Assembly: GCA_964386335.1 (NCBI GenBank)
Contig: CAYLRQ010000001.1
Span: forward strand, 13,568-53,618
Source: an uncultured archaeon
GTDB taxonomy: Archaea > Aenigmatarchaeota > Aenigmatarchaeia > QMZS01
Length of the DNA: 40,051 bases
Direction of reading: 5' to 3'
In this document: positions 1,217-20,058 of the stretch, piece after piece
Position numbering within the stretch: the first letter of the stretch is position 1
Layout: each line of letters starts with the position of its first letter
Position numbers and translations under genes: made by a program
Notes under the pieces: model-generated
The model's input: only the letters and a program-made list of their open reading frames with translations
Told to the model about the DNA's origin: nothing
The model's database searches: none

Positions 1217-2557
1217 ATGGATCTATTAAATATACTTCCAGGAGTTGCAAATCCAAAAACAAGACTAAATTTTAAGGATAGATTAAAATGGACAGGAATA
1301 GGTCTGTTGTTGTTCTATTTGATGGGTTTTATACATGTTGCCGGAGCCCAGGCTGAAGTTTATGACAGATTCAAGCAGATTTCTGTCTTGATGGGTTCTA
1401 AATTTGGAACTCTTGCAACTTTGGGAATTGGTCCAATAGTTACGGCTTCTATTCTTTTGCAGGTTTTGGTCGGTTCCAAAATAATAAATTGGGATTTGAA
1501 TACAAAAGAAGGAAGATCAAAATTTCAGGGAACACAAAAACTTCTCGCCATTGCTTTCTGTTTTTTGGAAGGTTTCGCTTATGTCCTGTTTGGGGCGGTT
1601 CCCGCCAGTTCACCTTCATTAATACCCATGGTAGGTCTACAAATTGCTCTCGGTGGTTTAATAATTTTATTCCTTGATGAAGTGATAATGAAATGGGGCA
1701 TCGGCTCGGGTGTTTCCCTATTTATTGCCGCCGGGGTTTCAGAGAGAGTATTTATTGGTTTGTTCTCTCCTTTTGAAAAGGCAGGGGCAATTGCACAATT
1801 GATATACGGCTTTTCAACTGCAAATTTTGTTCTCGTTGGAATGGCGGTCACAACAATTGCGGCAACTATTCTAATTTTTGCTATTTGCCTGTATGCTCAG
1901 TCAATTAAAGTAGAAATTCCTCTGGCCTTTTCCCAACTGAGAGGTTTTGGAAGAAGATGGCCTTTGAATTTCTTTTATACTTCAAACATTCCGGTAATTC
2001 TGGCAGCGGCATTAATTATAAATATATCTATGGTTGGAGCAATGCTGGATTCAAAAGGAATAAGCATCCTTGGAAAATTTGATGAATCTGGAACTCCTGC
2101 TCCAGGAGGAATTGTCTATTATCTAACGCCCCCTCACAATGTTCTTCAGAAGTTCCTGTTCGGCTTTGGTCCAGATCCAGTAGATGTTGTTAGAATTTTT
2201 ACTTATTTGGTTTTTTTGACAATTCTCTGTGTCGTGTTTTCTATATTCTGGGTTGAAACTGCAAATATGGGTCCCGAGGCCGTTGCCGATCAAATTTCAA
2301 ATATTGGCATGCAAATCCCGGGATTTAGAAAAGATAAGAGAATTCTTATAAAAATATTGAGTAAATACATATATCCGCTTACTGTATTGGGTGGAATTGC
2401 CGTAGGTATTTTGGCCGCCCTGGCAGATTTTACCGGAGCTTTGGGTACGGGAACCGGAATTTTACTTACGGTGATGATTTTATACAATTTCTATGAGAGA
2501 ATTTCCCAGCAATATATAGAAGATATGAATCCTGCTGTAAGAAAGTTCTTTAAATAA
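1217..2557 (+). CDS. secY: Preprotein translocase subunit SecY
   Basis: 446-aa polytopic membrane protein. 'RLKWTGIGLLLFYLM', 'LGIGPIVTASILLQ' and 'WGIGSGVSLFIAAG' are SecY/Sec61alpha signatures. It follows uL15. Confidence 0.93.
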   Translation: MDLLNILPGVANPKTRLNFKDRLKWTGIGLLLFYLMGFIHVAGAQAEVYDRFKQISVLMGSKFGTLATLGIGPIVTASILLQVLVGSKIINWDLNTKEGRSKFQGTQKLLAIAFCFLEGFAYVLFGAVPASSPSLIPMVGLQIALGGLIILFLDEVIMKWGIGSGVSLFIAAGVSERVFIGLFSPFEKAGAIAQLIYGFSTANFVLVGMAVTTIAATILIFAICLYAQSIKVEIPLAFSQLRGFGRRWPLNFFYTSNIPVILAAALIINISMVGAMLDSKGISILGKFDESGTPAPGGIVYYLTPPHNVLQKFLFGFGPDPVDVVRIFTYLVFLTILCVVFSIFWVETANMGPEAVADQISNIGMQIPGFRKDKRILIKILSKYIYPLTVLGGIAVGILAALADFTGALGTGTGILLTVMILYNFYERISQQYIEDMNPAVRKFFK

Positions 2558-2700
2558 ATAGTGAGAAGAAGGTGCCCGCACTATTTAAATTCTATCATAA
2601 CCTCAATGCTCTCCACAGGCATTCTCTGACTTTTCTCTTATTTCATATCAAGCTATTCTTTACTTCAATTACAAAAGTTACCAATTCAAATTAGAGAATT

Positions 2701-5094
2701 TTATAGATGGCAAATAACTTCAAAATTTCCCTCTCTAAATGAAACTTCTTCAACTCTGTTTGTTCCCTTTATGTCCGGCAGAACCCGTTTTAATTTCTCA
2801 ATATCTTCCTTTTTAGCCGCTATTTCGATTTTGCTGATTTGTTTTCCAAGAGATAATCTGTTCGATATTTTCCACCTGCGAACTTCCGAAATTACTTCTT
2901 TCAGCAACATGCCGGTTTTTAGAGATTCTCTGTCTTCAATTATTTTTTCGGGAAAATTAGATAAATGAATACTCTTGTCTTTCTCCATTTCTTTAAATAA
3001 AATCTGATAAATCTCTTCCGTAATATAAGGAATAAATGGGGCGAATAACTTGAGTATTCCAAGCAAAACATTATACAAAGTCCATTTAGCACTTAGTTTT
3101 GACTTTTCGTCCTCTCCGTAAATTCTATATTTGACTATTTCAAGATAAAAGTCGCAGAACTCGTGTTTGAAAAACATTTCCGTAATTCTTCTCGCCTCGC
3201 TGAGTTCATATTTGCCAAAATATTTGTGATAATCTTCAATAACAAGACCGAATCTCGTCAGGATCCATCTGTCAACAACAGTTAATTCGGGTTTTTTTAG
3301 TTTTTCAATATTTTGATGTATAAATCTCGAAGCATTCCAGAGTTTAATTAAAATATCCATGTTATGTTTTAAATCTTCCTCTCTAAAAGGCAAATCTTCC
3401 CCGATTTTTGCCGTTGTTGCCCAGAGCCTAATGGCGTCAGCACAATATTTTTCAATAATCTTTAAGGGGTCTATTATATTTCCAAGAGATTTTGACATTT
3501 TCTTTCCTTTCCTGTCAAGACCATGACCGGAAATCATTATATCTTTCCAGGGTTGTTTATCTAAATGCAAGTAAGATTTCAATATTGTGTAAAATGCCCA
3601 TGTTCTAATGATGTCGTGTCCTTGAGGTCTAAGAGACATCGGAAATATTTTTTCAAAAAATTCTTCATCTTCTTTCCATTTAGAATTTATCAACGGGGTG
3701 ATTGAAGAAGTAAACCAGGTATCAAATACATCCAATTCCGGAATAAATTCATTACTTCCGCATTTTGGACATTTCTTCGGATTGTCCTTCTCAGGATCTA
3801 CGGGTAATTTTTCATCTTCTGCTAAAACAACCTCTCCACAATTTTTGCAATACCAAACAGGAAACGGAACTCCATAATATCTCTGCCTTGAGATGCACCA
3901 ATCCCATTTTAAATTATTTACCCAATCTTCATAACGCCTTCTGTAAAATTTGGGATACCAGTTCACTTTTCTTCCAATTTCTATAAGTTTTTCTTTATGT
4001 TTCAGAATATTGACGAACCATTGCTTTGTAACTATGAATTCAACAGGAGTTTTACATCTCCAGCAAACGCCAACATTCTGTTTTAATTCCTCTTGTTTAT
4101 ATAAAATACCTTTTTCTTTTAAATCACTTATTATTTTTTCTCTCGCTTCTTCTATCGTCATTCCCTCGTATTGTTTTGCCATTTTATTCATTTTTCCGTC
4201 TTTTGTGATACATATTCTTAAAGGAAGATCGTGTATTTTCCACCATTCAATATCGGTCTTATCTCCAAATGTGCAAATCATCACAACTCCCGTACCAAAA
4301 TCCGGATCAACTTTTTCATCAGCAAAAATTTCAACTTCTTGTCCAAAGATGGGGACAAATGCCTTTCTGCCTATGTAATTTCTATATCTCTTATCTTCGG
4401 GATGAACCACTATTCCCACACAGGCGGGCAGCAATTCGGGTCTCGTTGTTGCTATTTTTATTTTCTCCCCATCCGACAATTCAAAAGTTAAATAATTAAG
4501 ATTTGTTATTCTTTCCTTATCATCAACTTCTGCCTGGGCCAGAGCAGTCTGATGAAAAGGACACCATATAGTTGGTTCTTCTTTTCTGTAAATTTCGCCT
4601 TTTTTATATAAATCAATAAAAGACCTTTGAGCCTGTTTTTGGCAAAAATTATCAATTGTTCTGTACAATAAATCACGGTCCCAGGAAAATCCCAAAGCTT
4701 CAAAAATTTTAGAATATTCAAGTTCTAGTTCTGTGGCAATATTGAAACACATTTTCCTGAATTCGTTTCTTTCAATGGTTGCTTTGGATACTTTTTTTGT
4801 TTCTTCAACATATTTTTCAGTTGGAAGCCCGTTATCATCAAAACAAGTTGGAAAGAAAACTTCATATCCGAGCATCCTTTTATATCTTGCAATATATTCA
4901 AAATGAGTATAACTCATAACGTGGCCAATATGCATCTTTCCGCTCGGCGTTATCGGTGGAACATCTATGGAGAATATATTTTTCCCCGACTTTATATTAA
5001 ACTTATAAATTTTTTCTTTTTTCCAGAACGCTCTCCATTTTTCTTCAATTTTTCCTAAATCCGGTCTCTTTGGCAAAGTTTCCATAATTAGCAT
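2701..5094 (-). CDS. valS: Valyl-tRNA synthetase (class I aaRS)
   Basis: 797 aa. HIGH motif 'SGKMHIGH', KMSKS motif 'KMSKSLGN', a CP1 editing-type insertion and Zn-knuckle 'CWRCKTP...CKNCG...CPKCG'. Size and N-terminal pattern fit archaeal ValRS better than IleRS or LeuRS. An alternative start is at 5085. Confidence 0.8.
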   Translation of the reverse strand: MLIMETLPKRPDLGKIEEKWRAFWKKEKIYKFNIKSGKNIFSIDVPPITPSGKMHIGHVMSYTHFEYIARYKRMLGYEVFFPTCFDDNGLPTEKYVEETKKVSKATIERNEFRKMCFNIATELELEYSKIFEALGFSWDRDLLYRTIDNFCQKQAQRSFIDLYKKGEIYRKEEPTIWCPFHQTALAQAEVDDKERITNLNYLTFELSDGEKIKIATTRPELLPACVGIVVHPEDKRYRNYIGRKAFVPIFGQEVEIFADEKVDPDFGTGVVMICTFGDKTDIEWWKIHDLPLRICITKDGKMNKMAKQYEGMTIEEAREKIISDLKEKGILYKQEELKQNVGVCWRCKTPVEFIVTKQWFVNILKHKEKLIEIGRKVNWYPKFYRRRYEDWVNNLKWDWCISRQRYYGVPFPVWYCKNCGEVVLAEDEKLPVDPEKDNPKKCPKCGSNEFIPELDVFDTWFTSSITPLINSKWKEDEEFFEKIFPMSLRPQGHDIIRTWAFYTILKSYLHLDKQPWKDIMISGHGLDRKGKKMSKSLGNIIDPLKIIEKYCADAIRLWATTAKIGEDLPFREEDLKHNMDILIKLWNASRFIHQNIEKLKKPELTVVDRWILTRFGLVIEDYHKYFGKYELSEARRITEMFFKHEFCDFYLEIVKYRIYGEDEKSKLSAKWTLYNVLLGILKLFAPFIPYITEEIYQILFKEMEKDKSIHLSNFPEKIIEDRESLKTGMLLKEVISEVRRWKISNRLSLGKQISKIEIAAKKEDIEKLKRVLPDIKGTNRVEEVSFREGNFEVICHL

Positions 5095-7643: not shown

Positions 7644-9101
7644 TTATGACTTCCTTTTATAAAATCTAAAGTAATAGATTGCACTGGCCAATATACCAAC
7701 TGCTATTATAACCATAAGAATTGCTAAATAATCTGGTTGTTTTGGTTTTGAAATCGGTTGTCCTTCTTGCGGTTGTTTCTCTTCTGTTGGTTGTGTTATA
7801 TTTTCTTTTGGATGCTTTGCTGGTTGCTCTTCTTGAACTTCCTCTAAATACTCAACATAGAATTCCACAGAAGTCTCATTAACTATAGAAGCATCTTTCT
7901 CTCCATTTATTTCATAAGTTATTGTTAATTCGTCTCCTTCTGAAACTTCTGGATAAACAAAAGCGTATTCCGGGTCTTTTTCAATAATTTCAACTGTTGC
8001 TTTAGGTGCTGTAACCGTAATTAAATCACTGGAATTCGCAAAGGTTTTTGGAACAGAATCATAAATAATAAAATTTTTTGCTTTCTTCTTTCCCTTATAT
8101 TTTACTTTTAATTCTAATTTTGATTTGTTTTGTTCTATTTTGAATTTTCTTGTTGCCTCCAAATTTGAAGTAATACTTGCCGAAAGCCTCAATAAATTTT
8201 CTATTGCCCGCTGAGACATTTTTCCCTTTCTCAAAACTTTCTCCAAAGCTGTCTGCAATTTTGTATTGTTGCGAAGTCCAACACCAGGAACCAAACTTAA
8301 TTTTTTTGTTGCATTTTTTGCTTTTTTTACCGGAGGGATATAAACTCCTCCGCCAATCCCTCCACCAGTTCCTCCGCCACTGCCTCCATCTCCGCCTTGT
8401 TGTTGTTCTTCCTGCTTACTACCTCCAGCGCTTTTAACAACAACAGTTATTAAGTCTGATTTAGAATCGCAATTTGAAGGTGAAGCGGTGAAGGTGACAT
8501 TTTGAGTTCCAACTGCAGATGCCAAAACAGTGCATGTAAGAGAAGCTCTTCCACCGGGAGAAATCGAAGTCACTGGAGAACATCCGCTCGAGATATTCAT
8601 TCCCGTGCCAGAAACAGAAAAACTCACGGATTCAGCACTTGTGCCCCCACTATTTTCTACATTTAAAGTAACGGTATAAGTAGAATCTTTATCTACTGTG
8701 ACAGAAGAAGGAAAAACAGATAATGAAATTGAAGGGGGTAAAACAACATCAAAGCTTGAACTTTCAGCCGTAGATGGTGAACCCGTAGTGCTAATACTAA
8801 CTTTTATCTTCACATTTGTTTGAATTGTTGAAATTCTTGCAGTTGTCCAGGATACGCTTGTTGTTCCATCTGAGAAAGATTTTGAAGTGCCTTCTTCTGT
8901 TGAAAATCCTGTGGGCAAATCAATTAAATTGACAGTGCCCGAATCGGATAAGCCTGAAACTGTGATTGTAAACGGCATGCCTTTCATTACGGTCCCGCTA
9001 TCTGCACCTGATTGGGTAATTAAAACTGTTGCTGCCTTTACTGGTATGATTAGTGCTAAAGAAATCAAAATTAAAACCAAAACTTTATTTTTTACCATCA
9101 T
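7644..9101 (-). CDS. Secreted, C-terminally membrane-anchored surface protein (Ig/CARDB-like repeats, Gly-rich linker)
   Basis: Signal peptide 'VLVLILISLALIIPVKA'. Ser/Thr-rich beta-type modules ('TYTVTLNVENSGGTSAESVSFSVSG' is CARDB-like). Linker 'QQQGGDGGSGGGTGGGIGGG'. C-terminal TM plus basic tail 'LAILMVIIAVGILASAIYYFRFYKRKS'. ATGA start/stop overlap with the upstream giant gene. Confidence 0.72.
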   Translation of the reverse strand: MMVKNKVLVLILISLALIIPVKAATVLITQSGADSGTVMKGMPFTITVSGLSDSGTVNLIDLPTGFSTEEGTSKSFSDGTTSVSWTTARISTIQTNVKIKVSISTTGSPSTAESSSFDVVLPPSISLSVFPSSVTVDKDSTYTVTLNVENSGGTSAESVSFSVSGTGMNISSGCSPVTSISPGGRASLTCTVLASAVGTQNVTFTASPSNCDSKSDLITVVVKSAGGSKQEEQQQGGDGGSGGGTGGGIGGGVYIPPVKKAKNATKKLSLVPGVGLRNNTKLQTALEKVLRKGKMSQRAIENLLRLSASITSNLEATRKFKIEQNKSKLELKVKYKGKKKAKNFIIYDSVPKTFANSSDLITVTAPKATVEIIEKDPEYAFVYPEVSEGDELTITYEINGEKDASIVNETSVEFYVEYLEEVQEEQPAKHPKENITQPTEEKQPQEGQPISKPKQPDYLAILMVIIAVGILASAIYYFRFYKRKS

Positions 9102-12100
9102 TTGCCACCACCTACTACCTTAAACCATTCTTTTTTTACTTCTGTTGCTCCAGTGGAATCTATTCTTATTTTCACCATATAATCACCTTCTGACCAGGTT
9201 CCATTAGGTGCAATTGTAACCAAAGCATATCCATAATTGTCTGTTTTATTTGAAGTAACGGTTGTATAATCTTCCCCTTCTTCCAAGAAGCAACCGCCTG
9301 TGTGAGTAAACTTCATTATTTTTTCTACGGATATGCTGGCATTAATAATCGGGGTATGGTCAAAGTTATATGCTTTCAATATAAAAGTAACATTATCAGA
9401 TATATTAAATCCTTCGTTCATATCTCTGTTTTTTCTAATTAACATAGAAGTGTTGTTGTAAACCACTATATCCCAATTTGGTTTTTCCTTCCAACTCATA
9501 TTTTTATTTTCTTTTCCAAATCTTAAATTACCGTTCCAGATTGCTGTTGGCAAACTGCTTCTCATCTCAACAATTCCAATTTCTTCTCCATAAAAATCAT
9601 AATAACTTGGAGTCTCTGCACTTAGATTAACACCCCACCAATCTTCTGTTATATAAGGGTCATCATCAACTATATTCTGTGTTAACTTCGCATTATTATT
9701 TGTGAAATCATCCAAAGCAAATATATAATAGGTTTTATTCCTGGCTCCGTCTCTATCCAAATCCAAATTAATTTCTGTTTCATTAACTGCTGCAAAGTAG
9801 GTTGTATTTGTATCTTTAGCTATCCAAACTCCGATGCCCGGCCTAACTTTTCCTGAGAGATTTCCTATTGTTATGCCTTCCCACGGACCCGGGCCGATAC
9901 TTGCTAAGTATAAATTTGATGTGAAATTTTCTCCTATTGAAACATTGATTGCATTGCTAAAATCTCCGTCTGTATCAAACCATGCAACTTTTGCACATTC
10001 ATCAATTCCCAGCACAGAACACATGGGATAATTTAAAGTGCTATTTGCCAAAACTATGTTATAATATACTCCACTCAAATTTAAAGCCATCATTCTCCAT
10101 TTTGGATGATTCCAGTCATGTCTCAAAGGTTTTACTTTTGAACTATTAAAGTTCTTCAAGCCAATAACAACTCCGTGACTTGTATTGGAATTGTTTACAG
10201 CAAGAATATAAAACATATAAGAATGATTATTATAATCTAAAATTGTAATCTGATCTCCCTCATTTTTTGCCTGAACATTTGAGAAATTACAATCTCCTTG
10301 TTTTATCCAGACCTTGCTATTATTTCCCGCATTTAAATAAACCCAATAATTAAAGTCCATGCTTAATGTCCAGTTTTCTGATGTATTATTAGCATCGCTG
10401 GGTATTGCAAAATTCGGACAAGATCCTGACCCGTTGCTTGCAGGATTTGCAAACACACCGTCATAAGTTTTTCCCCATTCACTGATATTGCCCATTAAAT
10501 CCAACAACATGCCATAAGTATCTTCCCTATATCTTTGTAAATTTAACTTTTTAAAGTTATTGATATAACCGCCTTCACCAACACAACTATCTGCCAAAAA
10601 TGCTTTTACTTCCACGAAAGGCCATCTCCGTTCTTCCATTATTTCCTTCCCGTCTTTGGTGATTGCCGCCAAACCAAAAGTATATCTTCCTGTCTCCATT
10701 GATTTGTTTAAGATTTGTGACAAATTAACAATTAATTCGCCTGATGCATTTATCCCCACAGGTGTAAAATTTATATCAGACCCCATAAACTCAAACATTC
10801 CATTTGAATTCTCCAATCTGATATGCGTAATTGTAACATTTGCTACTCCCGGACCTCCAGAAGGTTCTTGAATCATCACAGGAACTCTAACCAGATCACC
10901 TAATTTTATTTGTCCCAAGTCGCTCCAATCACCCGGCTTTACAGTATAAACTTTTATTTTCTTGGCATTGGGAGCAATGCTTAGTAAAACCAATTTGCTT
11001 CCTTCCCCAAATGTTCTTTGCGTTACATCGCTATTTACAGAAATAGGTATTGAGAAATTGCTGGTATTTGAGTAAAATAAGGTATCATAAAGCCCCTCTT
11101 TCTGACTATCTGAAATCATAAAGTACACAGTTGAATTTTCTTTGCCATCGCCATTTAAATCAATTCCTTTTTGTTTTTGCTCATTTGGATCAAAATATCC
11201 CAGCCATTCTTCATTTACTGCACCTAGTTTAAATACTCCGCTCTTTGATAAAGAAGTATTAACAAAAGCTCCTGTCTGTGCTAAAACATTTTGGCCATAT
11301 AGGACAACACTGTTGCTATCCAATTTCAAAACCTTCCATTTTCCCCCATAGGAATCATTTATAATCCCGTTAAGTGGAATTCCCTGAATTGAACTAAAGT
11401 TTGGCGTATCGCTCATCCACAGGTGTGTTGTATTATGATATACATAAACAGGTCTTGAAGAATTAAATTTGGGGAAGTGATGAGTAAACCAATCATTATT
11501 ACCCTGCAGATTCTTAATTAAATTTGCAATATAACCAAAATAGAAATTTGAGAAGTTTTTTGAATTATTTGGAGGCGTTATAACAAGTAAACTCGCCCCA
11601 TAATCCTCAAATTTTTTTCCGCAAATTCCTTTTGCATTTTTTATCTTAAAAGAATAAGGAGTAATATTTAAAATTTTCCAGGTTATATTTCCCGCTTCAA
11701 AAGTCTGCCCTATTGTATAATTTCCGAAGACAATGCAATTATTACTACAATTTAGATTATATGCGAAATGCGTTCCATTCACAGCAACACTTATATCAGT
11801 TCCTGTTTCTCCTTGACTGCAGTAGCCCCAATGCCATTCTCCACTTTCTCCCGAGATGCAATAAGCCCCAGCCATAGTGGCATTATGGATTGAACTTGTA
11901 TTAATATTATGTTGCCCATTCATGTCTGAAGTGCAATTAGTTATATTTGTTGATTGATTGAAAGAGCAAACTCCTGACAAATAATTATTATTCAAACAAG
12001 AATCTTCTCTGTTTTCCAATCTTAATTCTCTCTTTGGTGTATCCGTCTGCTGCTCAATCTGTACTTCAGTTATAGTGGGTGGGAAAACCGACACACTCCT

Positions 12101-15100
12101 TGTTTCAAACTCAATATTTTCCATATCTTTATTTCCCTTTATATCTACAATAGTAAGTTCTAGGTTGTATCTTCCTTTTGAAGAAATTATTTTGGATAAA
12201 TTAACTGTAATTGTGCAATTATTTGCTGTACAGGTAACAGTTGTAGAATTTGCCGGTGGTTTTATATGTTCGCCAATTTTTTTATTCTCTATTGCTCTTA
12301 CGCCTGTTTTGGTTTCATTAAGAATTACGGGACTTCCATTAAATGTATAAGCACTGACATTAATTACAACTATATCATCTGGTGCAAATATAACGGGCCA
12401 TTGATCTTTACCCATATAATCCAGCTTTGCCAAGAAAGGAGATACCCTGAACCAATAGGTGCCTATATCAGTGCCTTTGTTTGTCTTAACTTTGACATTT
12501 GCCATAAGATTTCCCGTCTTATTAATTCCGGTTATATTAATTATCCACATTTCTTCTTCTTGCTGAAATCCGCCATAATCTACAGTAACATTTTCCTTGC
12601 TGATTTTATAATTATAATCTGTCCCGTTTTTTAGTACAATAGGAGGCCCTTCTCTAAACAGATTTATGTTTTCTAATGAAGCATTTGTAATAATTAAAGG
12701 CTGTGGCGTACCATTCATTTTTGACTGAGGGTCATAAGCAACCACTCCAAATAAAACATTGCTGTTTACTCCATACGCTCCTCCCATTCCAAAAGATGCC
12801 ATTAAATTACCTTCAACAACATCAATCTGTCTTGCATCAATCCAGAAATTTCTTATCTCAAATCCAGCCCACCCAAAATAAGTATCATTTGTAGAAAGGT
12901 CGGTTAATTTTAAATCTATATGATACCAGCCTGATGGAAGATTGACCGGATTTATTGTCAGAGTTGCGCTTGAATTATAAACAAATCCTTCAATTACCTT
13001 GTAATCTGCGCCTTTCTCCATTTTCTTCATTAGTTGATCATTCCATAATTCATTAACATCTACCTCCAAACCATCACAATCTGTACAAGTTAATTGAGTT
13101 TTTCCTATATCTCTAATATCAAACAAACTTGCTTTATTTATATCGACAACATTTACCCTTATTGAAATATTTTCTCCAGAGCCAAAAATACAAGGCTGCA
13201 TTTGGCACATTGGTTCGCCCCAAATCATATATTTTTTAAGCATGAAATATCCGGTTCCGGTTCCTTCTTCCACGGTGCCGCTCAAATTTGCCTTGAATTT
13301 AAATTTGAACATGAAAAATCCCTCATCATCAGGGGTAATAAATCTTATTGTCCCGTTAACCAAGGTTTCATTTGCAATTGCTCTATAATCCTCTGTAAAA
13401 ACATCCTTATAAGAAGGCCAAACTTTATACATTTCAATAATTTTTGCATCTGTTATTTTACTCGCATCTAATTCCCGCCTTGTCAACAAATCAGTAATTT
13501 TTAATTTAATTTTTATTGTTTCATTTGGAGCATAGAACCAGAAATCGTCTCCTCTGAAATCTACAGGGTTTGCTCTTGCATATAATTTTTGTATTGAAAA
13601 TCTGGATGTGCTTTCTTTCTTACCTAAAGGATGATCAACACTTATCTTAACTTTATAAAATCCTTCTCTCTGCGGAGCATCAAATATAACCATGCATTGC
13701 TTATGCATAATCTCCGGCGGACCTTCATCAGATACATTCAACAAAGTCGGCACTACAGACATATTTACTATCATTAGATTCAAAGAACTTTTATTTAATT
13801 CTTCTCCATTCTCGTCTGAAACACTAAGAACTGTTATTCTATCTGAGCAATTTACTCCATCGCCCTTATAATCCTCTATATCTATAACCCCCACTTCTTC
13901 GGGAGGACCTTCCATCAAACCTTTTGAAGAGTTAATCAGCATTATTGCAATTGAAACCTTGCTATTTGGAGCAAAGGAATCTACCATTGCTTCCGGACCT
14001 CCAGCAGAATCCAAAAATTGTGTATTTATAGCCATTATCTGCAAAGAGACTGACCTAATTTCAAAAGCAGTTAAAAATTCCTGCTTTTTATTGGAGTAAC
14101 TAGCTATAATATCTACTTTATATTTTCCCTCCGGTTTACCTTCTAAATTTAACTCACTTTCATAAGTTCCGTTTCCTCCTGTTAAAGGAACAGAAGTTGT
14201 AGTTCCATCGGGATAACTAATATTGGCGCTGACCGAAGCCCCATCGATAAGTTGCCCGTCTAAAGTTTTCAATCTTGCAACAATTTTTAATTTTGGATTT
14301 GGCGTAAACAGATAAGTTGGCGTCCCTGCAAGATTTGTAATTTCGCCGTATAATTTGAAATTTTCAACTGAAAAGACTTCTGCAGGCGTTCCATTTATCT
14401 CAATAAAATAATTGCCTGTTCCATTGGGAGCTTTAAAACTGGCATTCAAACAACCCTCTTCCGTTGTATTAACTTCTGTCGAATTAATCACATTGCCTTC
14501 GCTATCTACCAAAGTTATATTTACTGTCTGATTTCCTTTTAAATGGTTTGTAGAATTTTCAACAAAACCCACAAAATAAACCTCTTCTCCACCAGAATAC
14601 ATAGAATCGTTTATTGGAGGTGCCAAAATAATTTTATTTCCGGTTGCAAATTCAACTTCTGCAATAACATAATCAACAGTTTCATCAATTTTCTCACCTA
14701 TTTTTCTTGATTTCCAGATTCTTGAGAAGTTCGCACTTTTATCAATATAGACCGAATCATAAATTCCCGGGAATCTGTTATCAACAAGAACAAAGGTAAA
14801 ATTCATTCCATCTTCTGTCAAATTAAAATAAGTTCCATAATGCAAAATTCCCGATAAAGACAGACCTTTCAGTTCAGAAAAGTTATGTCCGTCTTTTGTT
14901 GTTGTATTGGAGATATTAATAATATTATTTGTATTAACAAATTTTACATCGAGCATTCCCGCAAGATGTGCCTTGAAATATAATTTATCACTAACCATTT
15001 TAAAACCTAAAGGAATTGCTTCATTGCCGGCACTTACATTAACTACATAATCACCGGGGATTGTAAGATTTATATAAGCAGGGTCTGTTGTGTGAATAAC

Positions 15101-15343
15101 CATTGCAAAAATATTATTGCTTCCGCCTATCGACATAGCAGAATGATTTGCAATTAAAGTTCCGGAAGAATTATAAAATTTGGCAACTACCAATGTATGA
15201 TTTGTTGAAGTATCAACAACGCCATCTATTATAATATCCTCGCCCAACATATATTCCGTTTTATCTATATTTGTAACTAATGCAAAGGAGGGGATAATTT
15301 GAACTATAAGAGAAAGTACAAACACCAAAAATATCTTTCTCAT
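9098..15343 (-). CDS. Giant secreted surface protein (2081 aa), N-glycosylation-sequon rich
   Basis: Uninterrupted 6.2-kb ORF. N-terminal signal peptide 'IFLVFVLSLIVQIIPSFALV' and no C-terminal TM. Very dense N-x-S/T sequons (about 20 in the first ~330 residues by manual count). Cys-rich patch around 'CLNNNYLSGVCSFNQSTNITNC'. Confidence 0.85.
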   Translation of the reverse strand: MRKIFLVFVLSLIVQIIPSFALVTNIDKTEYMLGEDIIIDGVVDTSTNHTLVVAKFYNSSGTLIANHSAMSIGGSNNIFAMVIHTTDPAYINLTIPGDYVVNVSAGNEAIPLGFKMVSDKLYFKAHLAGMLDVKFVNTNNIINISNTTTKDGHNFSELKGLSLSGILHYGTYFNLTEDGMNFTFVLVDNRFPGIYDSVYIDKSANFSRIWKSRKIGEKIDETVDYVIAEVEFATGNKIILAPPINDSMYSGGEEVYFVGFVENSTNHLKGNQTVNITLVDSEGNVINSTEVNTTEEGCLNASFKAPNGTGNYFIEINGTPAEVFSVENFKLYGEITNLAGTPTYLFTPNPKLKIVARLKTLDGQLIDGASVSANISYPDGTTTSVPLTGGNGTYESELNLEGKPEGKYKVDIIASYSNKKQEFLTAFEIRSVSLQIMAINTQFLDSAGGPEAMVDSFAPNSKVSIAIMLINSSKGLMEGPPEEVGVIDIEDYKGDGVNCSDRITVLSVSDENGEELNKSSLNLMIVNMSVVPTLLNVSDEGPPEIMHKQCMVIFDAPQREGFYKVKISVDHPLGKKESTSRFSIQKLYARANPVDFRGDDFWFYAPNETIKIKLKITDLLTRRELDASKITDAKIIEMYKVWPSYKDVFTEDYRAIANETLVNGTIRFITPDDEGFFMFKFKFKANLSGTVEEGTGTGYFMLKKYMIWGEPMCQMQPCIFGSGENISIRVNVVDINKASLFDIRDIGKTQLTCTDCDGLEVDVNELWNDQLMKKMEKGADYKVIEGFVYNSSATLTINPVNLPSGWYHIDLKLTDLSTNDTYFGWAGFEIRNFWIDARQIDVVEGNLMASFGMGGAYGVNSNVLFGVVAYDPQSKMNGTPQPLIITNASLENINLFREGPPIVLKNGTDYNYKISKENVTVDYGGFQQEEEMWIINITGINKTGNLMANVKVKTNKGTDIGTYWFRVSPFLAKLDYMGKDQWPVIFAPDDIVVINVSAYTFNGSPVILNETKTGVRAIENKKIGEHIKPPANSTTVTCTANNCTITVNLSKIISSKGRYNLELTIVDIKGNKDMENIEFETRSVSVFPPTITEVQIEQQTDTPKRELRLENREDSCLNNNYLSGVCSFNQSTNITNCTSDMNGQHNINTSSIHNATMAGAYCISGESGEWHWGYCSQGETGTDISVAVNGTHFAYNLNCSNNCIVFGNYTIGQTFEAGNITWKILNITPYSFKIKNAKGICGKKFEDYGASLLVITPPNNSKNFSNFYFGYIANLIKNLQGNNDWFTHHFPKFNSSRPVYVYHNTTHLWMSDTPNFSSIQGIPLNGIINDSYGGKWKVLKLDSNSVVLYGQNVLAQTGAFVNTSLSKSGVFKLGAVNEEWLGYFDPNEQKQKGIDLNGDGKENSTVYFMISDSQKEGLYDTLFYSNTSNFSIPISVNSDVTQRTFGEGSKLVLLSIAPNAKKIKVYTVKPGDWSDLGQIKLGDLVRVPVMIQEPSGGPGVANVTITHIRLENSNGMFEFMGSDINFTPVGINASGELIVNLSQILNKSMETGRYTFGLAAITKDGKEIMEERRWPFVEVKAFLADSCVGEGGYINNFKKLNLQRYREDTYGMLLDLMGNISEWGKTYDGVFANPASNGSGSCPNFAIPSDANNTSENWTLSMDFNYWVYLNAGNNSKVWIKQGDCNFSNVQAKNEGDQITILDYNNHSYMFYILAVNNSNTSHGVVIGLKNFNSSKVKPLRHDWNHPKWRMMALNLSGVYYNIVLANSTLNYPMCSVLGIDECAKVAWFDTDGDFSNAINVSIGENFTSNLYLASIGPGPWEGITIGNLSGKVRPGIGVWIAKDTNTTYFAAVNETEINLDLDRDGARNKTYYIFALDDFTNNNAKLTQNIVDDDPYITEDWWGVNLSAETPSYYDFYGEEIGIVEMRSSLPTAIWNGNLRFGKENKNMSWKEKPNWDIVVYNNTSMLIRKNRDMNEGFNISDNVTFILKAYNFDHTPIINASISVEKIMKFTHTGGCFLEEGEDYTTVTSNKTDNYGYALVTIAPNGTWSEGDYMVKIRIDSTGATEVKKEWFKVVGGGK

Positions 15344-16056: not shown

Positions 16057-16776
16057 ATGTTGTTGGAAATCAAAGATTTGGAAGTTGAAGGAGATGGGAA
16101 AAAGATATTGAAAGGGATTGATTTAGAAATAGAGAAGGGAGAGATTCAGGCAATTCTTGGTCCAAATGCTTCAGGCAAAAGCACATTGGTAAAAGTAATA
16201 TCTGGAAATCCAAAATACAAAATTAAAAGGGGAAAGATTTTATTTAACGGGGAAGAAATTAACAAGATTCAAACGGAGAAAAGAACAAAACTTGGAATTG
16301 CCATAAGCTGGCAGCATCCTCCCGCTATTAAAAATGTAAAACTTTCTAATCTGCTGGATAAAATTTCCAAAAAGCATGTTGAAATTGAAAAATTTGGTGT
16401 CGGTAAAAATATGCTGGAGAGGGAAATAAATTTAAATTTTTCGGGAGGGGAAAAAAAGATTTCAGAATTGCTACAGATAATATCTTTAAATCCAAAACTC
16501 GCAATTTTTGATGAAATTGATTCTGGACTGGATATCAAAAAATTGGAAAAAGTTGGAGAAATTATAAAAAAAGAGTTAATTGATAAAAAAGTTTCGGTTT
16601 TATTAATTACGCACGGTGGAGAAATACTTAATTTTCTGAAACCCGCTTTTGTTAATGTGATGGTTGACGGAAAGATAATATGCAAAGAAAAAAATTTTAA
16701 AAAGGTCTTAAAAACCATAAGAGAGTATGATTATGAAGAATGCAAAAAATGCAAATTATATTCAAAGAGATCATAG
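16057..16776 (+). CDS. sufC: Fe-S cluster assembly ATPase SufC
   Basis: Walker A 'GPNASGKST', signature 'FSGGEKK', Walker B 'LAIFDEIDSGLD' and H-loop 'LLITHG'. A soluble ABC ATPase next to a SufB/D gene. Confidence 0.88.
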   Translation: MLLEIKDLEVEGDGKKILKGIDLEIEKGEIQAILGPNASGKSTLVKVISGNPKYKIKRGKILFNGEEINKIQTEKRTKLGIAISWQHPPAIKNVKLSNLLDKISKKHVEIEKFGVGKNMLEREINLNFSGGEKKISELLQIISLNPKLAIFDEIDSGLDIKKLEKVGEIIKKELIDKKVSVLLITHGGEILNFLKPAFVNVMVDGKIICKEKNFKKVLKTIREYDYEECKKCKLYSKRS

Positions 16777-17635
16777 TGCAAGTATTTTAAAATCTGAAGG
16801 TGTTGAATTGATGAGAATTTCAGAAGCTTTAAATAAATATGGGTGGTTAAAAAAATTTTTATATGGAAAACCAAAAGAAGGCTATTTTATATTTGTTAAG
16901 AAGCAGATAAAATATCCTCTTATTACTTGCGTAACCATTAATTCCAAAAAGATAAAACAGGAAATGCAGAACATAGTGATAATTGATAAAAATTTGAAAA
17001 TTTCCATGCAGGGAACATGCAGTTCGTTAAAGAAAGATTTGGAGGGGGTGCATTACGCAAGAGGCAAGATAATCCTGAAGGAAGGCGCTCATCTTAAATA
17101 CAATCATCTGCACTCATGGAACGATGGAGATGAAGTAAATTCGAATTATGAATTTTATTTAGAGAAAAACTCCAGACTGGATTATAATTACAATACTGTT
17201 TCATCACCAAAAAATTTATCGCTTACAACAAAAGTTGTGTGTTTGAAAAAGTCTGCTGCAAATCTGAAGATAAGCGGTATCTGCAAGAATTCTAAGATGA
17301 AAATAAAAGAGAATTTAATATTGAAAGAAAATAATTCCTCCGGCATACTGAAATTGAGATTTGTTGGAAAAGAGAACAGCGAAATTTTATCGCACTCGTC
17401 AATTACGGCGGAAGCAGAATGCAAAGGTCATTTGGATTGTCAGGGTTTGCTCGTTGATAAAACTTCAAAAATTTCATTAATTCCAGAATTGGCGTGCAAA
17501 GACAACAGATCTCAGATAACACACGAAGCATCAATTGGAAAAATCTCCGAGGAAGAACTGCATTATCTCAGAACAAGGGGTTTGAACGAGCAGGAGGCAA
17601 TAGATTTGATAGTCAATGGTTTTTTGGAAATATAG
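16727..17635 (+). CDS. sufBD: Fe-S cluster assembly scaffold SufB/SufD family protein
   Basis: C-terminus 'ITHEASIGKISEEELHYLRTRGLNEQEAIDLIVNGF' is the SufB/SufD signature. The short 302-aa form occurs in reduced archaea. The start may be the downstream Met at 16811, which avoids a 50-nt overlap with sufC. The last ~21 nt plus the stop lie inside the 30-bp direct repeat. Confidence 0.8.
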   Translation: MIMKNAKNANYIQRDHSASILKSEGVELMRISEALNKYGWLKKFLYGKPKEGYFIFVKKQIKYPLITCVTINSKKIKQEMQNIVIIDKNLKISMQGTCSSLKKDLEGVHYARGKIILKEGAHLKYNHLHSWNDGDEVNSNYEFYLEKNSRLDYNYNTVSSPKNLSLTTKVVCLKKSAANLKISGICKNSKMKIKENLILKENNSSGILKLRFVGKENSEILSHSSITAEAECKGHLDCQGLLVDKTSKISLIPELACKDNRSQITHEASIGKISEEELHYLRTRGLNEQEAIDLIVNGFLEI

Positions 17636-17644
17636 AAAATTAAA
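17615..17644. repeat. Direct repeat, left copy (aatggttttttggaaatatagaaaattaaa)
   Basis: A 30-bp string covering the sufBD C-terminal codons and TAG stop. It is repeated perfectly at 20029-20058. Confidence 0.95.
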
Positions 17645-17790
17645 AAATAAGAATCTTCATTCGGAGGATAGATTTTTGTTTCCATTTTTTATATTTAAGT
17701 TCATAAATAAAGTATGAGCCAAAGATTTATAAAATTTCGCTTTAACTCCTATTTGAGAGATCATACGAATAAAAAGTGTGTGAAATACTC

Positions 17791-17814
17791 GTTAGTTGCA
17801 ATTTTTGGCGGTGC
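17791..17814. repeat. Unit 1, 5' inverted-repeat arm (gttagttgc ... ttggcggtgc)
   Basis: gttagttgc (17791-17799) is the exact reverse complement of gcaactaac (18222-18230). tttttggcggtgc (17802-17814) pairs with gcaccgccgaaaa (18171-18183) with one G-T position. Confidence 0.85.
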
Positions 17815-17838
17815 TTTAAAGCGAAAGGTATTTAATTT

Positions 17839-18165
17839 ATGACTGAAGAAAAACGATTAATTAGCTATTGTGGAATTTGTTGTTCATTATGTCCCGCTTT
17901 CAGAGAAAAAGAGTGTCCCGGATGCCAAAAACTTTTAGAATTATCTGGTAGATGTGAAATTGCTAAATGTGCAAGCTCAAGAAATATTGAGTGCTGCTTT
18001 TTGTGTAAAGATTTCCCTTGTAAGTTGTTTGAAGAAGGTTTTGATTGGAATTTGGATGAAATTCCAGAATTCAAGGAATTCAAACTTGGTATAGTTAAGT
18101 GGAAACCCTATAGCAAAGAATATATCAGATTGTTTAAAATTGGAAAAGAAAAAACAGAAAAATAA
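17839..18165 (+). CDS. DUF3795-like Cys-rich (putative metal-binding) protein
   Basis: 108 aa. 'CGICCSLCPAFREKECPGCQK...CEIAKCASSRNIECCFLCKDFPC' matches the DUF3795 cysteine pattern. It is enclosed by the unit-1 inverted repeats. Confidence 0.6.
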   Translation: MTEEKRLISYCGICCSLCPAFREKECPGCQKLLELSGRCEIAKCASSRNIECCFLCKDFPCKLFEEGFDWNLDEIPEFKEFKLGIVKWKPYSKEYIRLFKIGKEKTEK

Positions 18166-18170
18166 TTTTC

Positions 18171-18230
18171 GCACCGCCGAAAACTCTTCGGCTTACTTCG
18201 TAAGCCTCGCCACTATCGTGGGCAACTAAC
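18171..18230. repeat. Unit 1, 3' inverted-repeat arm with inserted hairpins
   Basis: It starts 5 nt after the stop codon. gcaccgcc pairs back to 17807-17814. Local hairpins are gccgaa/ttcggc (18176-18192) and ggcttac-ttc-gtaagcc (18190-18206). It ends with gcaactaac. Visibly GC-rich. Confidence 0.85.
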
Positions 18231-18231
18231 A

Positions 18232-18301
18232 GCAAATATGCGAGAAATCTGCACTTCGTTTGATTTTCCCAAATCGCCTATCGGCGACTTCGCATATTTG
18301 C
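18232..18301. repeat. 12-bp perfect-stem hairpin at the junction between units 1 and 2
   Basis: gcaaatatgcga (18232-18243) pairs with tcgcatatttgc (18290-18301). An inner hairpin is tcgcc-tatc-ggcga (18274-18287). The hairpin is flanked by AACTAAC on the left and GTTAAGT on the right. Confidence 0.85.
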
Positions 18302-18306
18302 GATAT

Positions 18307-18363
18307 GTTAAGTCCAATTGAGGTCGGCTCGCAAGTATGATATCTCCCAAATGGGCGGGCTTT
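18307..18363. repeat. Unit 2, 5' inverted-repeat arm (three blocks)
   Basis: gttaagtcc (18307-18315), ttgaggtcggc (18318-18328) and gggcgggcttt (18353-18363) are reverse complements of 19577-19585 (9/9), 19507-19517 (11/11) and 19483-19493 (10/11). Confidence 0.88.
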
Positions 18364-18400
18364 CAAAAGATTTTTATATCTTTAATCATTGACTAAAATT

Positions 18401-19483
18401 ATGTTGTATAAAATTAAAGGAAAACAAACAGAAAAAGTAAATCAAACAAAATTTAAACAAGAAGAAAAATTAGAAAAAGATTTGGAAGATTGGATAGAGA
18501 ATAATCCATCTATCTTAGGAGAAAGGTTATTAATAATAGGGAGACAGGTCCAAATACCTGAAGTTTATGATAGAATTGATTTATTAGCTCTAGATACTAA
18601 TGGAAACGTAGTCATAATAGAATTAAAGAAAGGGGGACTTAAAGATCCAGTAGATATCCAATCTTTGAGATATGCTTCCTATGTTTCAAGGTGGGAATAC
18701 GAGGATTTAGAAAAACAAGCGAAGAACTATTTTTCTGAAAAAGGTGAAGAAGAATTTAATTTTAATGACAAATTTGAAGAATTTTGTTCATCTGCTGGGA
18801 TTGATGAAATTCCAGATTTAAATCAGGATCAAAGGATAATTATAGTTGGAAGTAAATTAAAGGAGAAATTAGGTTCTGTTGCATTGTGGTTAAGAGAACA
18901 CAGCATAGACATAAAAATTATTGAAGTTTCCCTTTACAAAGACGGAGATAATTTATTTTTATCCCCTCAAGTGATAATCCCTGTTCCTACAACAGAGAAG
19001 TTCGAGATTGGTAAACACGCTTTAAGGAAGGATAGACCTTGGTTAAGCAATGGTGAAGATTGGCATTTAAATAAAAGATGTGGAAAAATAATGAAAGAAA
19101 AATTAATTCAATTCAATAATCTAATTAATGAGAACTTTGAGACAGTCGAAGGTCCAAATTGGAATCAAAAATTTTATGTTTCTTTTAAAGAAGGAAATCA
19201 TATTTGGATATATGTTAATACTCATAAAACAACTCTTGTTTTTAATTTTTTAATTAAAAAAGGGGACATGAATGTAAATAAAATATCCGAAGATTTAGGA
19301 ATAAAAATATTTGATAGAGGATCTTCATTATCTGAAAAATTACAATTAGAAAGTTCTGTAGAAATTACAAATAAAGGAGAATATGATAGAATTAGAATGA
19401 GAATAAAAAAAGAATTTAATATTTCTTCTGATAAGTTCTTGAATTTTGTTAAAAATTGCTTCAATTCATTTAAACAAGTATAA
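18401..19483 (+). CDS. NucS-C/DUF91-like PD-(D/E)XK nuclease domain protein with uncharacterised C-terminal domain
   Basis: N-terminal 'LEDWIENNPSILGERLLIIGRQVQIPEVYDRIDLLALDTNGNVVIIELKKG...DIQSLRY' matches the NucS C-terminal / restriction-endonuclease-like motif (D...E-x-K, then Q-L-x-Y). The ATG at 18401 is preferred over the TTG at 18389 used by the ORF track. The C-terminal ~170 aa are unassigned, possibly DUF4268-like. Confidence 0.68.
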   Translation: MLYKIKGKQTEKVNQTKFKQEEKLEKDLEDWIENNPSILGERLLIIGRQVQIPEVYDRIDLLALDTNGNVVIIELKKGGLKDPVDIQSLRYASYVSRWEYEDLEKQAKNYFSEKGEEEFNFNDKFEEFCSSAGIDEIPDLNQDQRIIIVGSKLKEKLGSVALWLREHSIDIKIIEVSLYKDGDNLFLSPQVIIPVPTTEKFEIGKHALRKDRPWLSNGEDWHLNKRCGKIMKEKLIQFNNLINENFETVEGPNWNQKFYVSFKEGNHIWIYVNTHKTTLVFNFLIKKGDMNVNKISEDLGIKIFDRGSSLSEKLQLESSVEITNKGEYDRIRMRIKKEFNISSDKFLNFVKNCFNSFKQV

Positions 19484-19585
19484 AAGCCCACCCTTTATTT
19501 TAGCTCGCCGACCTCAACTTCTTCGTCGCTTCGCTCCTCGACCCCGTTGCACTCTCCTCGCCTTCGGCTCGTCGGGGGACTTAAC
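19483..19585. repeat. Unit 2, 3' inverted-repeat arm with ~59-nt GC-rich insertion
   Basis: It begins at the last base of the stop codon. It contains aaagcccaccc, gccgacctcaa, a GC-rich spacer (19518-19576) and ggacttaac. Its tail 'cctcgcc..tcgt.ggg..acttaacagc' resembles the tail of the unit-1 3' arm. Confidence 0.85.
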
Positions 19586-19632
19586 AGCGATTTAACGAAA
19601 TTCAGGCGGCTCGCTTTATATTTATTCGTAAT

Positions 19633-19977
19633 TTAAATAACTTGTACTTCATAGAATCTTTCCCTTTCTTTCATAGGAACCTTTCCTTTTTCCAAATTAT
19701 TTTTATATGTAAGGATCATATTCTCAATTTCCGAGAAAGGTTTCCAAAATTCTTCTCCAAACCTATTTTCAAGTTCAGCAGCAAGGGGTGATAAGTACCT
19801 CACCCTAGGTACACTAAGCACCGATGTTATAGCTTCGTATATTTGAGCTTTAAAAACACCGCCCTCTCTCTCTATAACCTTTTCTTCTAATATCTCTAAA
19901 GGTGATTTTTTACTAGCTATTATTGTTTGGTTAATACCTCCCTTTTCGTCCCAAACATAAATCTCGTATACCCTCAT
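19633..19977 (-). CDS. Hypothetical protein (114 aa) inside the insertion
   Basis: An ATG-initiated ORF in typical intergenic context, with no recognisable motif. It is the only minus-strand ORF within the repeat-bounded segment. Confidence 0.45.
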   Translation of the reverse strand: MRVYEIYVWDEKGGINQTIIASKKSPLEILEEKVIEREGGVFKAQIYEAITSVLSVPRVRYLSPLAAELENRFGEEFWKPFSEIENMILTYKNNLEKGKVPMKERERFYEVQVI

Positions 19978-20028
19978 ATATAAAAGAGAATAATTAATCT
20001 TTATAAACCTTTCGATTCTTTAACTGCT

Positions 20029-20058
20029 AATGGTTTTTTGGAAATATAGAAAATTAAA
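20029..20058. repeat. Direct repeat, right copy
   Basis: Identical 30/30 to 17615-17644. It lies 31 nt upstream of the CDF transporter start. Confidence 0.95.

Follow-up and report, generated by a model that had tools for sequence, protein, structure and literature searches.

A probable cassette recombination site in an Aenigmatarchaeota chromosome represents a family of attC-like sites distinct in structure from canonical attC

Integrons are the standard example of gene capture via folded single-stranded DNA. The I2 helix of the integrase IntI is regarded as the innovation that enabled such capture (PMC7790495). Integrons and clusters of attC sites lacking integron-integrases (CALINs) have been reported in archaea, including CALINs in Aenigmatarchaeota, and cloned archaeal attC sites were recombined by IntI1 (Ghaly et al. 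2022, PMC9668308). We analysed a 40,051-nucleotide stretch (the window) of the chromosome of an uncultured archaeon of the Aenigmatarchaeota (DPANN), for which the original prediction had proposed an integrase-less cassette cluster, a proposal that the published CALINs of this lineage make plausible. Comparison with other contigs indicates that the region at 18223-18316 is very likely the site by which a mobile gene cassette (17792-18307), carrying a DUF3795 open reading frame (ORF), recombines at its 3′ end. The site lies in a short cassette array without a recombinase gene. We refer to the family of sites to which it belongs as type-2; other contigs and loci are given by L numbers, and features are on the + strand unless stated otherwise.

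A coordinate check located four cores, GTTAGTT (17791-17797), AACTAAC (18224-18230), GTTAAGT (18307-18313) and ACTTAAC (19579-19585). The second and third are separated by a single A (18231), a perfect 12-bp stem formed by GCAAATATGCGA (18232-18243) and TCGCATATTTGC (18290-18301), and the spacer GATAT (18302-18306), so that every motif first read from the letters was found in its place. An imperfect palindrome of the RYYYAAC-like ... GTTRRRY-like layout, running from AACTAAC through the 12-bp stem to GTTAAGT, is thereby present 3′ of an ORF. The two spacers differ in length (1 nt vs 5 nt), and the extrahelical bases typical of attC, which had been suggested as a further check, are absent from the stem. 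On the basis of its covariance-model score, its fold, and the family alignment with its covariation, the type-2 site was divided into TAAC-A, the outer stem (18232-18243 / 18290-18301), inner hairpin 1 (18244-18268), CCAAAT (18269-18274), inner hairpin 2 (18275-18286), ACTTC (18287-18291), the spacer GATAT, and GTTA of the next cassette. As single-stranded DNA the site folds with −19.5 kcal/mol (z = −4.0), and none of 200 shuffled sequences was as stable.

In both units of the window, the AAC core is the exact reverse complement of the GTT core of the same unit over 9 nt (GTTAGTTGC, 17791-17799, with GCAACTAAC, 18222-18230, in cassette 1; GTTAAGTCC, 18307-18315, with GGACTTAAC, 19577-19585, in cassette 2), and it pairs with the physically following GTT core at only 5 of 7 positions, in agreement with what had been claimed for both comparisons. 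Among 40 cassettes bounded by two type-2 sites, own ends matched at 6.17 of the 9 variable positions after GTT, compared with 4.12 when the cores were physical neighbours and 4.27 when they were paired at random (n = 40). The pairing of own ends reaches 17-19 nt in several cassettes, for example GTTATCTGAAATGCTGTGC / GCACAGCACATCAGATAAC in L177. These comparisons of cassette ends show that the start and the end of each cassette are complementary to one another, as would follow from excision and re-insertion of circles. The crossover of cassette 1 would lie between G 17791 and T 17792. The extended own-end pairing also carries a conserved single mismatch at position 11 in many unrelated cassettes (40 cassettes, L086-L206), with ..GAAATG.. 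in the 5′ arm and ..GAAGTG.. in the complement of the 3′ arm, which places A opposite C.

Circularisation changes the predicted fold of the non-coding DNA of cassette 1, which reaches −75.4 kcal/mol vs −56.3 kcal/mol for a linear junction of equal length and forms one continuous structure of an inner pairing (P2), the small hairpins, the R box and the outer stem. P2 joins TTTTGGCGGTGC (17803-17814) with GCACCGCCGAAAA (18171-18183) across the ORF, and in unit 2 GAGGTCGGC (18320-18328) pairs with GCCGACCTC (19507-19515) and GGGCGGGCTTT (18353-18363) with AAAGCCCACCC (19483-19493). A homologous cassette in L018, from Cloacimonadota, retains inner pairing with a different sequence (GGGCTAAGGGAGGC / GCCTGCCTTAGCCC). 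The extended pairing blocks predicted to span the ORFs are therefore present in the window but do not extend to the family: enrichment was weak, with 7 of the 40 cassettes above the permuted 95th percentile, and inner pairing was rejected as a family-wide rule.

The exact 360-aa product of the cassette 2 ORF is encoded on 17 contigs, and BLASTN against the window followed by inspection placed at least four different neighbours ahead of the block 18307-20031. Upstream of the 360-aa cassette lie a DUF3795 cassette (window, L002, L005, L010), a 111-aa ORF (L004, L007, L008, L009), an HhH-GPD gene (L003), or a multi-ORF DUF4760 cassette (L006). Homology of L004, L007, L008 and L009 to the window starts precisely at 18307, the G of GTTAAGT, and the left flank of L004 and L007 is identical to that of the window until GTTAG (17791-17795). 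Since the breakpoints fall at 18307 and within 17791-17795, exactly one cassette has been replaced from G|TT to G|TT. The replacement cassette, GTTAGGCGA-AATTTTGGCCGC ... ORF ... GCGGCCAAAA ... TCGCCTAAC-A-GGTGCATATCCGA ... TTCGGATATGCCC-AGAAC-GTTAAGT, has the architecture of the window cassette with different, mutually compensating sequences in its covarying arms, and the hairpin module switches along with the upstream unit. Contig comparison thus shows that cassettes have been exchanged as units bounded at G|TT. Together with the own-end rule (n = 40), the two breakpoints support the predicted movement of units as circles through a crossover at G|TT, and the identical cassette 2 after four different upstream cassettes answers the call for an ORF seen elsewhere together with its arms. 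Relatives of the 360-aa protein number at least 733 across Bacteria and Archaea, with 81% identity in a Cloacimonadota metagenome-assembled genome (MAG) and 79% in Altiarchaeales.

Two unusual arrangements were seen among the relatives of cassette 2. In L083 (2790-2900), the 3′ end of the cassette is directly followed by its own start (GGGGCACATAAC-AGGTG-GTTATGTGGC), and there is neither a hairpin module nor, ahead of the ORF, the 5′ arm; the arrangement resembles a circle junction or a cassette opened at another position. In L020 (2120-2380) and L021, both from Altiarchaeales, the 360-aa gene is preceded by the cassette-start-like GTTAGCAAAATTTTAG and a GC-rich structured segment, no 3′ arms or type-2 site are present, and a DUF1016/YhcG PDDEXK gene comes next, so that the locus looks like a decayed cassette.

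In the type-2 layout, R″ (NNNNTAAC) is followed after 1 nt by the outer stem, which has 10-12 bp and ATAT at its centre. This stem opens into a three-way junction in which two inner hairpins are arranged around CCAAAT and ACTTC, and 4-5 nt separate its 3′ arm from R′ (GTTANNNN). The site in L018 reads ..GGCACATAAC-A-GGGGATATAAGG (hairpin) CCCAAAT (TGCC TTC GGCA) ACTTC TTATATACCCC-AGAC-GTTAGAAGG, and the arms that flank the ORF of its cassette covary. A simple scan for AAC, a stem and GTT was abandoned as too permissive, as it gave 470 matches, mostly chance G-T stems. A pattern derived from four sites and read on the opposite strand (TAAC N9 ATAT NN GAAGT N11-19 ATTTRG) matched at least 119 metagenome contigs, and most matches also carry features that the pattern does not force, namely TAAC-A upstream, a complementary 5′ arm, and GTTANNNNAAT downstream. 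These data yielded 81 distinct full sites. When 59 sites were aligned, double compensatory changes were seen in 12 of the 17 predicted pairs (for example GC 22, CG 13, AU 10 and UA 9 at columns 14-96), and about 40% of members have a single bulged base at column 12. The covariance model R2, built from this alignment with the window, L004, L006 and L018 among the training sequences, matched 164, 30 and 12 sites in three contig searches, and the layout was found with covarying sequence at more than 190 sites outside the window. The window site agrees with every conserved column of the alignment and scored 65.2 bits on the + strand vs 10.5 bits on the − strand, being itself in the training set. 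In related contigs the sites form arrays of two to seven, co-oriented and always on one strand. When R2 was run on 0.9 Mb of mostly bacterial genome loci, it found only L030, L084 and already known relatives. Pfam searches of 147 ORFs from type-2 contigs showed contents including DNA methylases, restriction enzymes and acetyltransferases, and no integrase occurred among the 25 commonest families, which comprise every family matched by at least two members. The aligned sites and contigs show a large, strand-specific family, structurally distinct from canonical attC. No description of it was found in the literature, of which coverage was incomplete, so that an earlier description is possible.

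Strand bias is family-wide outside the motif forced by the scan, with CTTCG found 70 times vs CGAAG once, and the hairpin triloops on the ORF (top) strand are TTC in 28 cases and GAA in none. C-GAA-G triloops are unusually stable in DNA. Because the TTC triloops become stable GAA triloops on the complementary strand, the strand that folds is probably the one complementary to the ORFs, as in integrons.

The relation to canonical attC was assessed with R1, a proxy attC model built from 13 sequences, nine validated archaeal attC sites (PMC9668308 Data S9) and four bacterial sites. R1 gave no match at 18224-18313 with filters off and E ≤ 10, and recovered attC sites on which it had not been trained in L039, L033, L035, L030, L104 and L139. 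The window site is therefore attC-like in logic and not canonical, given the lack of a proxy-model match and of an IntI or Xer gene nearby; the original prediction of an attC-like junction of integron-style cassettes is supported in its layout and logic. A scan of species-representative genomes found textbook attC sites on both sides of the 360-aa gene in Pirellulales, Syntrophaceae and Desulfobacteraceae, a canonical example being L032 (GTTGGGTGA..ORF..TCACCCAAC-AACAG-CGTGCACAGGAC...GCCTGTGACG-CTGAGC-GTTAGCG), and in L035 an array of the 360-aa family adjoins a true IntI (434 bits on TIGR02249), which makes a complete integron. In L030, an Anaerolineae MAG, a type-2 cassette lies between long GC-rich palindromic sites ending in GTTAG, one of which R1 matched weakly (18.8 bits, E = 0.44); in L104 canonical and type-2 sites alternate without hybrid cores; and in L139 a hybrid junction places the start of a type-2 cassette (GTTATGTGC, own end GCACATAAC) directly after a canonical attC at G|TT. 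These three arrangements indicate that canonical and type-2 sites share arrays and at least sometimes recombine with each other. The contents of type-2 cassettes also resemble those of archaeal integron cassettes (PMC9668308 Data S7).

Recombinase genes were sought in all fetched DNA by phmmer with IntI1 and XerC sequences as probes, and hits were confirmed by NCBIfam and PDB searches. In L192 and L097, type-2 arrays are directly preceded by truncated IntI-like genes that point in the same direction, and NCBIfam identified both as tyrosine recombinases of the XerA/IntI type. The family of these array-associated enzymes has more than 5,997 members at E ≤ 1e-20, the 120 best-scoring relatives being 60-96% identical, and its taxa include Nitrospirota, ANME-1, Methanocellales and Micrarchaeota. 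One full-length member, P0123 (356 aa), was found within the type-2 arrays of L205 and L206, oriented like their cassettes and with differing cassettes around it, and R1 found no canonical attC in these two arrays; P0127, a second member, occupies the contig end of L207 that faces the array, after ordinary chromosomal genes. The best PDB match of P0123 was IntI4/VchIntIA (2a3v), in two stretches that omit IntI4 residues 181-239. About 17 residues replace this segment in P0123, which is thus without the I2 insertion. The array-associated recombinase has an N-terminal extension of about 80-95 aa. P0123 scored 240 bits on TIGR02249, under the cut-off of 265 bits, and passed NF040815. It scored 166 bits against IntI1 vs 88 bits against XerC, and it aligns with the LPVVL and SPLD motifs common to IntI1 and the IntI of L035 and absent from XerC in the alignment. 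Type-2 contigs amounting to about 0.55 Mb showed no I2-bearing IntI, and four of them carry the I2-less enzyme. The insertion of IntI is described as 'not fully conserved' in the integron-like subgroup of a recombinase classification (PMC8138268). No description of an I2-less array-associated recombinase was found in the literature covered, which was incomplete.

A double hairpin lies 3′ of the recombinase gene, GGTATATCCGAAC..GTTCG..ATACC, CCAAA, GGATATCCGAAC..GTTCGGATAT, ending in AACGA-GTTA at the start of the first cassette, which in L206 is a beta-lactamase cassette (GTTATGTGAAATATAC ... GTATACTTCACATAAC). This attI-like structure is conserved in L206, L207 and L006, and opens the array in L006, which carries cassette 2 of the window. 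Its stem shares the motif GGATAT with the outer stems of type-2 sites, which argues for a functional link between the recombinase and these sites, still one of association. We place nearly an even chance on the I2-less recombinase being their cognate enzyme.

Several further relatives of the recombinase were seen. A plasmid search returned relatives all below 60% identity. The catalytic half is about 53% identical to tyrosine-type recombinase/integrase genes of many Acinetobacter plasmids (NZ_CP041297.1; TnpF in FJ012881.1) from livestock and clinical sources, and the full-length protein is 45% identical to a Chryseobacterium plasmid gene annotated 'site-specific tyrosine recombinase/integron integrase'. 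In L205 and L206 (L206 586-661) the recombinase gene is closely preceded by a weak type-2 site that ends in ...CAGAAC-ATTATCC.

In the mechanism that we propose, one DNA strand, probably that complementary to the ORFs, would fold, its small hairpins then bearing GAA triloops. As in attC, a tyrosine recombinase would meet the R″/R′ duplex and the outer stem as if they were the two arms of its core site, and it would cut at G|TT and release a circular cassette able to re-insert at another site; an excised cassette should carry a circle junction, for example ...GCATATTTGCGATATG|TTAGTTGCAATT. The most likely enzyme would be the IntI-sister recombinase of about 356 aa without I2 that occurs co-directionally inside type-2 arrays, with canonical IntI acting in trans as the alternative, and the double hairpin GGATATCCGAAC...GTTCGGATAT ending in GTTA after the recombinase gene would be the equivalent of attI. 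The window copy would have lost, or never had, the recombinase and the attI-like site. With both lacking and the site of cassette 2 degenerate, the window is best read as a decaying CALIN-like remnant. On a broader and more tentative reading, to which we give somewhat less than an even chance, type-2 sites and the I2-less recombinase would form a second, so far undescribed integron-like lineage with its own attI-like double hairpin, a co-directional recombinase and cassette exchange with classical integrons, abundant in sediment-type metagenomes and shared by Bacteria and Archaea including DPANN.

The following points weigh against this interpretation. All the evidence for mobility is comparative, drawn from metagenome contigs, some of them MEGAHIT contigs from related strains. 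The window contains only one intact site, where at least two co-oriented attC sites within a few kb would be looked for, and no tyrosine recombinase of the IntI or Xer type, not even a fragment, was found in the 40-kb window or the next 8.3 kb, so that the suggested search for an IntI-type enzyme was negative at this locus. The R2 scores of the window, L004, L006 and L018 are inflated by the presence of these sequences in the training alignment, and the conclusion that the window site is not a canonical attC rests on a proxy model of 13 sequences. In L018 the base before the TT of the cassette is C, not G, and the absence of hybrid cores in L104 means that the two site types may not interact there. 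The link between recombinase and sites is an association on four or five short contigs, and the recombinase may be a passenger cassette, as its gene lies between type-2 sites.

This last arrangement is also what would be seen if type-2 sites were ordinary, sequence-divergent attC sites served in trans by canonical, I2-containing IntI, with the I2-less recombinase as a passenger gene. Type-2 cassettes do share arrays with canonical attC sites (L030, L104, L139), in L139 through an insertion at G|TT behind a canonical attC, canonical attC sites and a true IntI accompany the 360-aa gene as well, and IntI1 recombines cloned archaeal attC sites (PMC9668308). We nevertheless regard this explanation as unlikely, if a serious competitor, because a proxy model that recovers untrained attC sites finds no match in the window even at E ≤ 10 with filters off; because the spacers are 1 vs 4-5 nt, where canonical sites have about 5 vs 5-6, the stem in the window is free of extrahelical bases and type-2 sites have a three-way junction; because the type-2 contigs yielded the I2-less enzyme and no I2-bearing IntI; and because the GGATAT stem motif found after the recombinase gene is common to type-2 sites.

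The own-end complementarity can also be read as the terminal inverted repeats (TIRs), 9-19 nt long, of non-autonomous transposons (GTTANNNNN ... NNNNNTAAC) with a cargo ORF each, the hairpin being backbone DNA. The hairpin module, however, is itself conserved with covariation and switches with the upstream unit between the window and L004; units 1 and 2 lack flanking target-site duplications, co-oriented arrays reach six or seven sites, and no transposase gene is associated, a single Y1_Tnp gene lying 2.6 kb away in L018 only, all of which makes such transposons very improbable. IS608-like insertion 3′ of TAAC was also considered; it fits the left junction of L018 (AATAAC|TT) and not the junctions of the window, which do not follow a TTAC-target logic of the IS608 style either. 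Scarcely more probable is a structure acting at the RNA level, as a terminator, a processing signal or a pairing of 5′ and 3′ untranslated regions, with the different contexts produced by homologous recombination between strains. The stable hairpins stand directly 3′ of ORFs on the coding strand and P2 brackets the ORF from just past the stop codon, as such a structure would, but breakpoints fall precisely at GTTA between otherwise unrelated sequences, no Rfam family matches, P2 is not general, and TTC triloops are unremarkable in RNA, their complement being a very stable GAA triloop in DNA. An added RNA role such as termination, alongside recombination, is possible. As for chance, short AAC and GTT motifs are common in AT-rich DNA and a simple stem scan yields hundreds of weak matches; the comparative data refute coincidence and reduce it to a negligible probability, since the points of cassette exchange are marked by a layout of which more than 190 covarying instances were found. 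A cassette recombination site accordingly remains our reading of the window junction.

The array lies in a chromosome that is archaeal by its genes for aIF2-beta, L44e, RLI/ABCE1, EF-2, S7, L6 and SecY, the RLI protein being identical to RLJ06313.1 (Candidatus Aenigmatarchaeota archaeon). The window belongs to a contig of 60.8 kb, ena:ERZ27245762:k141_389524. An Rfam 15 search of the window at permissive thresholds gave only three chance-level snoRNA matches (E > 1). The island is bordered by a 30-bp direct repeat whose copies at 17615-17644 and 20029-20058 are 100% identical, as described for the array beforehand; the left copy comprises the last codons of sufD (SUFBD_core match in Pfam), the stop codon and 9 nt beyond. 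An AT-rich leader (17645-17790) without a recombinase gene or attI-like hairpins leads from the repeat to the first cassette and is identical in L004 and L007 up to GTTAG. It showed no significant similarity to the attI-like double hairpins of L006, L206 and L207, and the idea that it is a decayed attI-like region was rejected.

Cassette 1 begins with its R′ core (17791-17799), the exact reverse complement of 18222-18230, followed by the 5′ arm of P2 (17803-17814) and a 108-aa DUF3795 ORF (17839-18165; PF12675, 29 bits); DUF3795 ORFs are also present as cassettes in L205. Its 3′ non-coding part (18171-18223) contains the 3′ arm of P2 and three small GC-rich hairpins (18176-18192, 18190-18206 with a TTC triloop, and 18209-18223), the first two of which overlap and are therefore alternatives, and leads into the R″ core (18222-18230). 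Cassette 2 starts with its R′ core (18307-18315), the exact reverse complement of 19577-19585, and its 5′ inner-pairing arms (18320-18363). Its ORF (18401-19483) encodes the 360-aa protein, which has an N-terminal NucS_C/PDDEXK-like nuclease domain and is spread over Bacteria and Archaea. The 3′ non-coding part (19483-19585), with AAAGCCCACCC, GCCGACCTC, GC-rich hairpins and the R″ core (19577-19585), is conserved in the homologues of L018, L083 and L084.

At the expected site of cassette 2 lies a degenerate remnant (19586-19632), AAC-A-GCGA..TCGC-TTTAT-ATTTATT, in which ATT replaces GTT. The region 19586-19660 copies the layout superficially and has neither a significant fold (z = +0.9) nor an R2 match, and R2 found no further type-2 site in the window or the next 8.3 kb; the predicted cassette array is thus reduced to one intact site. 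The ATT ending, seen also at the weak site of L205 and L206, may be a recurrent 'dead-end' variant. An inverted 114-aa ORF (19633-19977, − strand) without a family match follows and always accompanies cassette 2, as the block 18307-20031. It was rejected as a reversed cassette, as complementary ends of its own were not found by eye and 19572-19660 gave neither a fold nor a model match. The right repeat (20029-20058) closes the island. In L004 and L007 it is represented by a 182-bp 3′ fragment of sufD (L004 2606-2787) preceded by 100 bp of unrelated DNA, and in L005 an extra segment of 860 bp with two reverse ORFs stands directly after it (2518-3377). These variants place the island in a variable hotspot: the 3′ end of sufD, noted at 17457-17644 and 20029-20058 of the window, is, on contig evidence, a strain-variable integration hotspot, and the island was probably placed there by an event separate from cassette recombination.

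Fe-S cluster assembly genes stand beside arrays twice, as a NifU-like gene followed by a truncated recombinase and an array in L097 (5769-7151) and as sufC, sufD and the array in the window (16057-17635). Two giant predicted proteins were also noted, of 2081 aa in the window (9098-15343, − strand) and of 1652 aa in L208 (2562-7520). They may be cell-surface proteins, given the richness of the former in N-x-S/T motifs and the faint MG2-type Pfam matches, the only ones, of both.

For the window, the cassettes account for an island in a DPANN genome that varies between strains and lies at the 3′ end of sufD. Should the link between type-2 sites and the I2-less recombinase hold, a sizeable share of environmental cassette arrays may go unnoticed by standard tools for finding integrons, nature would offer a test of the requirement for I2 in hairpin recombination, and a further route of gene flow between Bacteria and Archaea would exist, as the 81% identity of the 360-aa cassette between the window archaeon and Cloacimonadota illustrates. 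If the enzyme does recombine folded sites without I2, the account of the origin of IntI from Xer-like ancestors would change.

Compared with known systems, the type-2 arrays stand closest to integron cassettes, attC sites and CALINs, with which they share one ORF per unit, the RYYYAAC-like/GTTRRRY-like imperfect palindrome, exchange at G|TT, a start complementary to the own end, co-oriented arrays, similar cassette functions, the same 360-aa gene, and mixed arrays. They differ from attC in the lack of a proxy-model match, spacers of 1 vs 4-5 nt (about 5 vs 5-6 in attC) and an extrahelical pair that is missing, in their ATAT centre, CCAAAT, ACTTC and three-way junction, in an R box of 9-19 bp, and in having no I2-bearing IntI associated. 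The array-associated recombinase resembles IntI (TIGR02249; 2a3v) in its best PDB match to IntI4, its LPVVL and SPLD motifs and its higher score against IntI1 than against XerC; unlike IntI, it is without I2, falls below the TIGR02249 cut-off, has an N-terminal extension, and is embedded co-directionally, not divergently. Like archaeal XerA, it passes NF040815 ('recomb_XerA_Arch: site-specific tyrosine recombinase/integron integrase'), and the stems contain GATAT-type arms as in XerA/dif, whereas the sites are folded elements of 85-105 nt in arrays, unlike the 28-bp dif-like duplex sites of XerA/dif and of Xer-dependent integrative elements. With an identity of 70-96% across Bacteria and Archaea, the recombinase family also does not look like a vertically inherited housekeeping Xer. 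With IS200/IS605 elements and palindrome-associated transposable elements (PATEs), type-2 cassettes share hairpin dependence, strand specificity and, probably, circular single-stranded intermediates; they differ from these in the absence of a Y1 HUH transposase, in terminal inverted cores, and in forming arrays in place of single insertions 3′ of a tetranucleotide. What is new here in relation to all of these is the type of site and, probably, also the enzyme.

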